Virus record (IMG/VR): IMGVR_UViG_2718218168_000001
Location: 34,217-98,216 of that record
From: a virus
Lineage: Duplodnaviria > Heunggongvirae > Uroviricota > Caudoviricetes
Length of the DNA stretch: 64,000 bases
Direction: 5' to 3' (one strand)
Shown: piece after piece, positions 24,253-48,722 of the stretch
How the letters are laid out: every line of letters starts with the position of its first letter
Numbering within the stretch: the stretch's first letter is position 1
Made by a program: the position numbers and the translations under genes
Notes under the pieces: generated by a model
Databases searched by the model: none
The model's input: the letters and a program-made list of their open reading frames with translations, nothing else
Told to the model about the DNA's origin: nothing

Positions 24253-24328
24253 TGGTGCCGATTAACGGACTCGAACCGCTGACATCCTGCTTACAAGGCA
24301 GGCGCTCTACCAACTGAGCTAAACCGGC
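24253..24328 (-). tRNA. tRNA-Thr (UGU)
   Basis: GCCGGTTTAGCTCAGTTGGTAGAGC...CTTGTAA...GGTTCGAGTCC...CACCA, 76 nt. Confidence 0.85.
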
Positions 24329-24330
24329 AT

Positions 24331-24406
24331 TGGCGATGGTGGATGGATTTGAACCATCGACCCGTTGATTAACAGTCAACCGCTCTAACCGCTGAGCTAC
24401 ACCATC
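24331..24406 (-). tRNA. tRNA-Asn (GUU)
   Basis: GATGGTGTAGCTCAGCGGTTAGAGC...CTGTTAA...GGTTCAAATCC...CGCCA, 76 nt. Confidence 0.85.
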
Positions 24407-25071
24407 ACTTGCCGGGTACGTCTCCGGCGAGGGCTTCCACCTCCGTATGCTTTTCGGCGCACCGCGCCCTGGCTGCAATTCGGTAACAGGGGATGCACAA
24501 CCCTGGCTTCCAGCGTGATTAGCGCCTTCAGCATGACGGGATATACCCGTAAATTCGTGGAACTGTACCCAAAGTGCTGTTAAGCACCGCTGTTACGCTG
24601 AAAAGAAAACGCAACAGGAAAGGACGCTGACCAACAGATGGCCCCTTCTCGTTCATCTGGTTAATCACACCAGCGCCCTTACCTGTTGTGCCTCCCCGTT
24701 CCCTAATACACAGACGGGGACACTCTGCGGTCGATTTTTTGACGGGGGACGACTCATACCCCGTGGCATCTGGCTTCTTAGGCCGCTACCATCATCAGAT
24801 CATCGTTTGCATTTACTTTAATGGCCAGTTTCTAAACCGCCGCAAAGTCGCTAACCATGACGAAAACCCTGAAAAAAACGCCCACCCGAAGATGGGCAAA
24901 CTGGAAGCTCGTAACGCACTTCGGCGTTGCCACTTAGGCGCATGGTCAACCTGGCAACTCGGTGGTTTGTCTGGGAGGACTAGGCCCAGCCATGCTTACC
25001 GCCGCGCCTGTCGCGGCTAACAGCTAAATCGCTCTATAAATCACGATTCATTGAGGTGATATTACACTAAT

Positions 25072-25088
25072 AAATTTATTAGAGCAAT
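25072..25088. promoter_or_regulatory. C1 operator, 17/17 to AAATTTATTAGAGCAAT
   Basis: perfect match overlapping the dmt stop codon, upstream of the tRNA-ban operon. Confidence 0.6.
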
Positions 25089-45793: not shown

Positions 45794-46828
45794 TTAACCT
45801 ATTGCTACTGGTTTTAACAAACCAGCATCAAGTAGCTTGCGAGTTAACCACTGCTGGCCTTTACCCGTTAATTGGGGCGTCAGCCGTATCTGGTAGCCAT
45901 TTTCATCATCCAGCACCACTTCTTTCACCGTGAAATACCCGGCGTTGATGTACTGTTGGCGCGGTACGTTTTTGCGCGCACCAAAAGCCATGAGAATGCC
46001 GTTCTGGCGCAACCATGAGAAAAGGGTGTTTTGCTTAAGTCCAACGACCTTTGCAAAGTTCCCGATCAGGATTCCATTGGCCACTGATACCCGGTCGGCA
46101 AAATCGACTTTAGGGGCTGCGGCCACCAGCTGTTGTTCCAACTGCATTTTCTGTTCTGCTAACTCGGCAGCCAGGCGTAGGGCTTCTGGTAATGTCTGGG
46201 GGATCGATGGGGTAGGGGAGTTTGCCTGCTGTAATTCTTCCAGTTTGTCGATCAGCGAACGGCGGACCGCTTTTGACTCGCGCGCGGCAACTCGCAGGGC
46301 TTGTTTGTAGGTCATTGTTATAATATCTATTTCTGCGCCGTTTTTTTGACCTACGAAAATTTCGTAGGTTTCTCCTTCAAGTTCATCCTTAACTCTGGCA
46401 ATGAAATCATTATTGCGAACTGGTTTTTCGCTACATAATTTCCGTGCCTCATTGACCATCTTCAACAATGTTTGGCTGTCGATTGTGTCTCCGATGTTGG
46501 GGATGACATTCACGGCTGGTGTTGGCGTAGCTGACGTAACAGGTGCTGGTTTTTCAATATTCAAATTTTTACCGGTCACTCTGTGTGCCTCCTTTCTCAT
46601 TTCTGCTACCACTGTTGCGTAACGTAGACGTCCTTGTTCAATCAAATAATCCCTGATCTCGGCTATCAGTAGCTTGTTGATCACAGCCTTATCTGTTCGG
46701 GTATAAAAACGTCTGGTTATCATGAAATAGTTGGCAATTGCGCCGGGGATCTCCCGTGTCGGCATACAGGTTGTATGCAGGGCGATCGCTTCGGCTATTT
46801 CATTACGGGTGACGAGAGGTTTTTTCAT
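45794..46828 (-). CDS. ant1: antirepressor Ant
   Basis: ORF track 45794..47038; probable start at MKKPLVTRNE inside the icd 3' end; C-terminal half paralogous to KilA. Confidence 0.55.
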   Translation of the reverse strand: MKKPLVTRNEIAEAIALHTTCMPTREIPGAIANYFMITRRFYTRTDKAVINKLLIAEIRDYLIEQGRLRYATVVAEMRKEAHRVTGKNLNIEKPAPVTSATPTPAVNVIPNIGDTIDSQTLLKMVNEARKLCSEKPVRNNDFIARVKDELEGETYEIFVGQKNGAEIDIITMTYKQALRVAARESKAVRRSLIDKLEELQQANSPTPSIPQTLPEALRLAAELAEQKMQLEQQLVAAAPKVDFADRVSVANGILIGNFAKVVGLKQNTLFSWLRQNGILMAFGARKNVPRQQYINAGYFTVKEVVLDDENGYQIRLTPQLTGKGQQWLTRKLLDAGLLKPVAIG

Positions 46829-47045
46829 AAATCCCCTGAACGTCGGCAGAGAAGGGGAGGTTCCAGTAACTAAGTGAATTGCGCGAGTTAGTTGAAAAAC
46901 GGGCAGTAAAAATGCAGGGGCCATCAGGCAATTGAGAGCGTGCTTCGTCTTCTGTTGCTGCGATGACGAAGTGATAGTGGTGTTTTTTACAGGAATAGAA
47001 ACGCCAGATGAATTCTTGGTGTGCGCAAGGATTGGCATTAACCAT
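46803..47045 (-). CDS. icd: Icd-like small protein
   Basis: 80-aa ORF whose 3' end overlaps the ant start, the arrangement described for P1 immI; sequence not verified. Confidence 0.4.
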   Translation of the reverse strand: MVNANPCAHQEFIWRFYSCKKHHYHFVIAATEDEARSQLPDGPCIFTARFSTNSRNSLSYWNLPFSADVQGIYEKTSRHP

Positions 47046-47359
47046 AGTTACGGCCTCACAATCAGGTTTAACAACCTGCTACCCGCTGCTAAACAGGTGG
47101 CAGGACGTGACGGGGTTAGCAGACTGGCGATTGTGAAACCAGCAGGCCGAAGCCTCCCCATCACGCCCCACCATAATTTGGGCGTAACGCGGTTTTACGG
47201 ACACAAAAATACCGCAATATCGGATATCTGCGGCTGTCCGCACAATCATTCAGGCTGCTAAACCCGGTCGCAGAATTTGCTACGACGGCGAAACTATAAG
47301 CCTGAACGATTAAAAGGTCAATATGATGCGAAAAGATAGCATTCACGACTTAAAAATAC

Positions 47360-47376
47360 AAATTTATTAGAGCAGA
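47360..47376. promoter_or_regulatory. C1 operator-like 17-mer (15/17) upstream of the c4-icd-ant-like operon
   Basis: aaatttattagagcaga. Confidence 0.55.
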
Positions 47377-47657: not shown

Positions 47658-48179
47658 ATGATTCTTATGTCTAAAAAGTATACTTTATGCGCTCTTGTTG
47701 TATCTGCAATTCTTCTTTCTGGGTGTCAATCTAGCGGTGCTGATTATGCTGCCGATGTTTATGATACCGCTCAATTGAATTCGAAGCAGGAAACAAAGAC
47801 AGTCAATATTATCTCTGTGCTTCCAGCTAAAGTGAAAGTTGATAATAAAGCTAATAAAGAAGCGGCACAGACATTTGGTGCGGTACTGGGAGCTGTTGCT
47901 GGGGGCGTTGCCGGTTATAATGTTAAAGGCACATCGACACTGGGTGCTGTAGCTGGCGGTACTGGTGGTGCGGCTCTTGGTGCAGCGGCTGGTTCTTTGG
48001 TTAGTGATAAAACAATTGTTGAAGGTGTTTCACTGACTTATAAAGAAGGAACTAAGGTGTTCACTTCAACTCAAGTTGGTAAAGCATGCCAGTTTACAAC
48101 GGGGCTTGCTGTGCTTATTTCAACTAAAGATAATGAAACTCGAATTCAGCCAAATGCTACTTGTCCAGAAAAGAAATAA
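47658..48179 (+). CDS. lipoprotein with glycine-zipper region
   Basis: 173 aa; signal peptide plus lipobox LLSGC; GAVLGAVAGGVAGY... glycine zipper; AT-rich. Confidence 0.6.
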   Translation: MILMSKKYTLCALVVSAILLSGCQSSGADYAADVYDTAQLNSKQETKTVNIISVLPAKVKVDNKANKEAAQTFGAVLGAVAGGVAGYNVKGTSTLGAVAGGTGGAALGAAAGSLVSDKTIVEGVSLTYKEGTKVFTSTQVGKACQFTTGLAVLISTKDNETRIQPNATCPEKK

Positions 48180-48182
48180 TTT

Positions 48183-48722
48183 ATGAATAAAATTATTTTA
48201 TTTCTAATCTTTTCTACGTTTAGTGTAGGCAATGCCTTGGCTAACTCGTTGCAAAGTCAAATTGCTGCTATTGCTCAAGCGGAAAATGAAGGGCGAGCTA
48301 AAGAGCAGCAAGCTGAGGATGCCAGAAAAGAACTTATTCGCCAACAAGCACAAGCTGAACGTATTAGAAGAGAAAAAGCAGCATCTGCCGCTGCTGCACG
48401 CGAAAAACAGCGTGTTGCTGCAGAAAATGAACGTAGAGCAAAACGAGAAGCCGAGCTAGCAAATGACAAGAAGCGAGATCAAGCTTATGAGGATGAGCTT
48501 CGCAAGCTGCAACTCGAAAGCATGAAACTCGAACTGCAAGCAAAAGCGGCTCGTGTCCAGCGAGAAAACGATTTTATAGAGCAGGAGTTGAAGGAGAGAG
48601 CAGCTAAGACAGATGTAATTCAGTCTGAGGCTGATGCAAATAGAAATATTTCTACAGGAAGTAAAGATTTACTGCAAAGCGAAGGAAAAGCTAGAGAGAA
48701 GAAAGCTAGCAGTTGGTGGTAG
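48183..48722 (+). CDS. secreted coiled-coil protein
   Basis: 179 aa; signal peptide (MNKIILFLIFSTFSVGNALA) then Ala/Glu/Arg/Lys-rich helix. Confidence 0.55.
   Translation: MNKIILFLIFSTFSVGNALANSLQSQIAAIAQAENEGRAKEQQAEDARKELIRQQAQAERIRREKAASAAAAREKQRVAAENERRAKREAELANDKKRDQAYEDELRKLQLESMKLELQAKAARVQRENDFIEQELKERAAKTDVIQSEADANRNISTGSKDLLQSEGKAREKKASSWW

Follow-up and report, generated by a model that had tools for sequence, protein, structure and literature searches.

A P7-type c4 antisense RNA locus in the immI control region of a P1-like phage-plasmid

Introduction

The closest described relatives of the locus examined here are the immI regions of the phages P1 and P7. In these phages the c4 mechanism and the processing of c4, an antisense RNA, to 77 nt are established (Citron & Schuster 1990, 1992; Riedel et al. 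1993; Heinrich et al. 1994; as cited in PMC8201110 and PMC8546580).

Here we describe a locus of this kind in a stretch of viral DNA of 64,000 nucleotides, which we will refer to as the window. An earlier reading, made from the letters alone and called here the sequence-only reading, had proposed a probable c4 antisense RNA locus upstream of icd and ant. We conclude, with a probability of about 0.95, that the locus belongs to a P1/P7-like phage-plasmid and is its immI control region, that it has the specificity of P7, and that its c4 RNA would block the translation of icd and ant.

The comparison with the named systems can be summarized as follows. The immI region of P7 (AF503408.1, 50853-52448) is identical to the window in all 77 nt of c4, in the antisense elements a′ and b′, in the targets a1, b1, a2 and b2, and in the operator Op(c4). 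Over the 501 bp around c4 the identity is 98.4%, and upstream P7 likewise has upf50.5 and upf50.0 where P1 has its simABC genes. What sets the two apart is a small number of substitutions that spare the functional elements, the sequence of the icd/ant1 junction, and Ant1, which has 348 aa in P7 and 344 aa here (321 of 349 aligned columns are identical). The immI region of P1 (AF234172.1; Rfam families RF01695 and RF03163) agrees with the window in architecture, promoters and RNA fold and is 93.9% identical over the 501-bp query. However, its a element is TTGACAG where the window has TTAGCAG, its b element is GTTAGTG where the window has GATTGTG, and simABC lies upstream. These 2-nt differences in a and b are the documented basis of the heteroimmunity between P1 and P7.

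Among the closest sequences are the Escherichia phage RCS47 (99.6% over 501 bp), in which c4 is annotated, and the E. coli plasmid NZ_CP150020.1 (99.9% over 701 bp). In both, unlike the window, icd and ant1 still meet in phase at an ATGA. A further relative is the c4/icd region of phage D6, which shares the c4 scaffold and has all of a1, b1, a2 and b2. Its a allele is of the P1 type, and its b allele is a third one (CGTAAGT in b′, ACTTACG in b1 and b2), again fully compensated. It differs in having another antirepressor gene and an unrelated upstream region.

Results

The Rfam model of the C4 antisense RNA (RF01695) matches positions 47178-47093 of the minus strand over its full length (model positions 1-87), with 69.6 bits (gathering score 45, E = 1.7e-11). 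The model of the a1 and b1 targets of this RNA (RF03163) scores 54.6 bits (gathering score 46.7, E = 5e-11). Both matches fall inside the region that had been put forward as a probable c4 locus, and the proposal is borne out by the predicted RNA itself, in which 77 of 77 nt agree with the RNA annotated as c4 (misc_RNA) in the P7 record and 5 positions differ from P1 c4. The whole locus is read on the minus strand. An alignment with the annotated records of P7 and of P1, the latter with its c4 and its a and b targets as the sequence-only reading had recommended, placed all of the elements there (Table 1).

The predicted fold of c4 has a free energy of -44.9 kcal/mol (z = -5.7), with the same structure as MFE and as centroid. 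A 17-bp closing stem surrounds two hairpins. The internal stretches that it leaves unpaired are a UUCG tetraloop, a 9-nt loop UUCACAAUC (36-44) and a 7-nt junction CUGCUAA (51-57), and none else.

What are the partners of the loop and the junction? The decamer GCTGCTAAAC had been reported to occur twice, and a search of both strands of the 64 kb found it only at 47085-47094 and 47254-47263, both times on the plus strand. By chance 0.15 copies are expected, and two or more matches were reached in none of 100 shuffles. The two copies had been taken for a pair of antisense and target, which is not how they are related. On the transcribed strand the decamer reads GUUUAGCAGC. It contains a core of 7 nt, UUAGCAG, which is a1 where the decamer stands upstream of c4 and a2 where it stands downstream. 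The two copies are targets in the same sense, and their partner is a′, a separate 7-mer within c4. A second repeat, GAUUGUG, which the earlier reading did not mention, makes up b1 and b2. The complementarity that the same reading had wanted looked for is present in the leader of icd, where a2 and b2 are exactly complemented by a′ and b′ of c4.

The predicted duplex of a′ with a1 or a2 has -8.5 kcal/mol, and that of b′ with b1 has -8.7 kcal/mol. Target b2 runs into the Shine–Dalgarno sequence of icd, GAGG (47057-47054), 8 nt before the icd ATG (47045), and the b′ loop is predicted to form 10 bp with GAUUGUGAGG, into GAGG, at -11.7 kcal/mol. As this duplex runs into the ribosome-binding site of icd, the sequence supports the textbook c4 mechanism. 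When the c4 elements of P1 are placed on the corresponding targets of the window, the predicted duplexes reach only -1.9 to -4.9 kcal/mol. At each of the six pairing elements the window has the allele of P7, 2 nt away from that of P1. By its alleles, the predicted immunity specificity of the window is of the P7 type as opposed to the P1 type.

Folding of the whole leader (47286-47030, minus strand) also predicted a long-range helix of 16 bp that brackets c4, between CGGGUUUAGCAGCCUG of the a1 region (47266-47251) and CAGGUUGUUAAACCUG (47081-47066), which lies between a2 and b2. We have not adopted it. The variation found in relatives separates this helix from two local hairpins neither way, and D6-type loci keep about 9 bp of it.

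Table 1. Features of the immI locus in the window, with the support for each
Feature	Position	Strand	Support or description
Op(c4), C1 repressor operator, formerly Op51	47376-47360	minus	TCTGCTCTAATAAATTT
Promoter P51a (P2c4)	47362-47333	minus	-35 47362-47356 overlapping operator; -10 47338-47333
Promoter P51b (P1c4)	47321-47293	minus	TTGACC, 17-nt spacer, TATAGT
c4-a1b1 RNA motif	47299-47247	minus	hairpin, then second hairpin with a1 in its loop
a1 target UUAGCAG	47261-47255	minus	exact complement of a′; aligned with annotated P1 a1
b1 target GAUUGUG	47247-47241	minus	exact complement of b′; aligned with annotated P1 b1
c4 antisense RNA, mature 77 nt	47172-47096	minus	Rfam RF01695; identity to P7 c4
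b′ antisense element CACAAUC	47135-47129	minus	within the 9-nt hairpin loop; unpaired in MFE and centroid; P7-type allele
a′ antisense element CUGCUAA	47122-47116	minus	exactly the unpaired junction 51-57; P7-type allele
a2 target UUAGCAG	47092-47086	minus	3 nt past the c4 3′ end; exact complement of a′; alignment to P1
b2 target GAUUGUG	47063-47057	minus	exact complement of b′; aligned with annotated P1 b2
icd (cell-division inhibitor), 80 aa	47045-46803	minus	NCBIfam phage_ICD_like, 52.3 bits
ant1, 344 aa	46828-45794	minus	Pfam ANT/KilAC domain, E = 1.3e-30
ant2	start GTG 46579, same frame as ant1	minus	P7 annotation
Op(rep), C1 operator, formerly Op53, ahead of kilA	45715-45699	minus	1 mismatch to consensus; P7 and P1 annotation
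kilA, 266 aa	45629-44829	minus	KilA-N and ANT domains
repL	44799-43954	minus	named solely from its colinear position in P7 and P1

The C1 operator-like site that had been seen upstream of the RNA region is a genuine match. The 17-mer has 2 mismatches to the C1-operator consensus of P1, ATTGCTCTAATAAATTT, and is identical, base for base, to the feature annotated in P7 as the 'monovalent C1-controlled operator Op(c4)'. Across the window there are 10 C1-operator-like 17-mers, against 0.31 expected. Apart from Op(c4) and Op(rep) there are eight with at most 3 mismatches, starting at 1809, 9235, 11328, 11377, 15001, 25061, 25072 and 29617, and two of them form an overlapping inverted pair at 25061-25088. 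Sites scattered in this way fit the dispersed C1 regulon of P1.

Of the two promoters, P51a has been placed by homology only, through alignment to the annotated P1 promoter, from which it differs by one substitution in the spacer. P51b was the sole sigma-70-like site in a consensus scan of the region, with 10 of 12 matches, and it lies exactly where the P1c4 promoter is annotated in P1.

Downstream, the order of operator, RNA region, icd, ant and kilA-repL had been said to mirror immI of P1, and it matches the annotated records of both P1 and P7. From the operator and the promoters through icd and ant to kilA and repL, the parts follow these records colinearly at 97-99% identity. Ant1 is identical to the NZ_CP150020 protein in 342 of 345 aligned columns and to RCS47 Ant1 in 332 of 345 (stop included in both cases). 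Pfam had no model matching Icd or RepL. NCBIfam recognised Icd and left RepL unrecognised.

The sequence-only reading had icd overlapping ant. An overlap is present, but it measures 26 nt here as opposed to the usual 4-nt ATGA, owing to a deletion of 1 nt in a run of G at about 46832-46836 (minus strand; junction 46828-46836). From the end of icd to the ATG of ant1 the junction reads CAGGGGGGTTTATGA in P7, P1 and RCS47, CAGGGGGATTTATGA in the closest plasmid, NZ_CP150020, and CAGGGGATTTATGA in the window, with one G fewer. The run is GGGGGG in P7, GGGGGA in NZ_CP150020 and GGGGA in the window. Because of this deletion the ATGA overlap of stop and start that marks the immI operon of P1 and P7 is gone, and Icd is lengthened to 80 aa, compared with 73 aa in P1 and P7. 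Its tail is ...DVQGIYEKTSRHP in place of ...DVQGGL or ...DVQGDL, and its stop is shifted to 46805-46803, 26 nt into ant1 and out of frame. A spurious ORF of 414 aa (47038-45794) is a product of the same frameshift.

The phase at this junction is kept in 61 of 62 other loci, and in the exception, CP042641.1, the run likewise lacks one base. In exact-match scans of genome_contigs and viral_contigs the junction variant of the window was absent, so that recurrence of the deletion cannot be shown. No 100% match was found among 5,426 complete E. coli genomes.

The alleles at the pairing elements were followed in a larger set of loci. A scan of IMG/VR with the invariant 5′ half of c4 returned at least 119 stretches. 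The co-variation set consists of at least 116 loci with complete flanks, from annotated reference records (L001-L007) and from IMG/VR (L008 onward). Among the matches listed there are at least seven b′ alleles and at least two a′ alleles, which occur in at least 12 combinations, or classes; most of these classes have several distinct leader sequences each. The window falls in the commonest class among the matches listed. In 116 of 116 loci among the matches listed, a1, b1, a2 and b2 are all exact complements of the a′ and b′ of the same locus. For example, P1 and P7 are 2 nt apart in each of the six pairing elements, and these changes always compensate each other.

The order of the elements along the transcript is interleaved: a1, b1, b′, a′, a2, b2. 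For this reason one crossover between two parental types could not have produced the mixed classes. Given the interleaving and the full matching, pairing, including that of a1 and b1, appears to be under selection.

Finally, we looked at where such loci are found. Over the 12 kb around the locus the identity is 97.7% with phage P7 and also with phage JL22; with P1 it is 96.7-97.1%, over 89% of that length. A 701-bp query across the locus matched 600 plasmid records. It also matched in 568 of the 5,426 complete E. coli genomes, in 435 of them over at least 80% of the query, and 699 of the places in these genomes were plasmid-borne and 10 chromosomal. The identities and the plasmid-borne matches indicate that the window is a piece of a P1/P7-like phage-plasmid (Punavirus).

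Discussion

The c4 circuit of P1 and P7 can be laid over the window element by element, and by analogy with the published work on those phages c4 would be expressed, processed and active in repression in the present element too. Transcription of the minus strand would start at two promoters, the upstream one overlapping the C1 operator, and the transcript would carry a1, b1, c4, a2, b2, icd and ant1/ant2 in this order. The 77-nt c4 would be excised from this operon transcript. Hartmann et al. 1995 reportedly found that its 5′ end is made by RNase P. In the long-stemmed c4, b′ in the hairpin loop and a′ in the 7-nt junction would be left free to pair with b2 and a2 of the icd leader, and the duplex of b′ with b2 would cover the ribosome-binding site of icd. 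Translation of icd would be blocked, and through coupling so would that of the antirepressor Ant1/Ant2. Without Ant the C1 repressor would stay active, and the prophage would remain immune.

Could the stretch encode a small C4 repressor protein instead? The sequence-only reading had described about 300 bp without an ORF, and this is not quite so, since mechanical ORFs of 56 and 61 aa on the minus strand and of 109 aa on the plus strand overlap it. The 56-aa ORF (47249-47079, minus) is the candidate for such a protein. Indeed c4 was first annotated in this manner, and public records of this kind persist: X15639 (X15639.1) lists 'c4: CDS', and CP042641.1 has a 56-aa 'transcriptional regulator' in the same place (1652-1822). 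That said, the ORF is not conserved. P1 and P7 are separated by an indel of 1 nt, which puts the ORF out of frame after some 18 codons, and the products are unrelated past that point. In D6 there is no ATG, for the ATG sits inside b1 and the b1 allele of D6 is a different one. With the frame unconserved in P1 and the ATG absent from D6, we have rejected this ORF as a protein gene. The differences among P1, P7 and D6 are compensating changes in the six pairing elements, and the co-variation of these elements in at least 116 loci is the pattern of an RNA, unlike that of a protein. Published work, cited in PMC8201110 and PMC8546580, likewise showed that c4 is an RNA. A protein reading is thus hardly credible. 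Much the same is true of the idea that the decamers are a chance repeat, or sites for a protein that binds the DNA, with no relation to RNA pairing. An exact repeat of 10 nt is short, and families of two copies often arise by chance. Against this stand the expectation and the shuffles given above, and the fact that the 7-nt core exactly complements a′, which is unpaired in c4. The core also changes along with a′ in P1, in D6 and in 116 of 116 other loci among the matches listed, and because of this co-variation we regard a chance or protein-binding repeat as excluded for practical purposes.

The antisense RNA reading leaves one question about the genes that it would control, since the output side of the operon may not behave as in P7 given the loss of the ATGA overlap. 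One explanation, compatible with the antisense RNA reading, is that control by c4 is intact and the operon altered: the deletion would be real, the C-terminus of Icd changed, Ant weakened or uncoupled, and the prophage harder to de-repress via immI. The shortened G-run, the new tail of Icd with its stop 26 nt inside ant1 and the near-universal phase of the junction in other loci all speak for it, as does the remark in the P1 record that icd is 'apparently required for expression of ant'. However, a changed homopolymer length is the commonest of assembly errors, and the variant has turned up neither in genome_contigs and viral_contigs nor, as a 100% match, in the complete E. coli genomes. The ATG and the reading frame of ant1 are intact, and ribosomes on icd would still unfold the region of the ant1 start. 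On balance we consider the altered operon unlikely, at something like one chance among several. The deletion may be a homopolymer length error of the sequencing or a private mutation; if real, it could weaken the expression of Ant. It is without effect on the c4 RNA or its targets. The frameshift calls for caution before this sequence is used as a reference for icd and ant.

The c4 locus described here raises a further possibility, that it is one allele of an RNA specificity code with two modules, in which a1 and b1 are selected binding sites of C4 and in which there are many more non-immune immI types than P1 and P7. The role of a1 and b1 is only 'putative' in the P1 record, and we would give this broader proposal even odds. 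If correct, a1 and b1 could serve in, for example, feedback on c4's own precursor, and P1-like phage-plasmids would be divided among a far larger number of immI types, mutually non-immune, than the classical P1/P7 pair.

The finding itself is an ordinary one. The feature is already known and is annotated in the closest phage records. It matters little beyond the correct annotation of the element as a P1-like phage-plasmid of the P7 immunity type. The specificity type of c4 does, on the other hand, predict which related phage-plasmids can superinfect or coexist. In the RefSeq plasmid records that we examined c4 was left unannotated, and automated annotation often omits it.

Several observations were made in the neighbourhood. 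The opposite (plus) strand carries, upstream of the operator at 47658-48722, a lipoprotein-like ORF of 173 aa and an ORF of 179 aa, the counterparts of upf50.5 and upf50.0 of P7; the latter is named a DUF5384 family protein in RefSeq records. In P1 this position is occupied by the superimmunity genes simABC, so the window is P7-like here too. Three tRNA genes on the minus strand were found with Rfam (22540-22612, 24256-24328 and 24334-24406), as expected of a P1-like genome.

The window has one c4-type locus. Among its relatives there are contigs with two each (L022 and L056, L019 and L081, L059 and L068), and the 501-bp query matched two places in each of RCS47 and JL22. A second c4/icd region has been reported for the D6-like plasmid pYU39_89 (PMC6799933).
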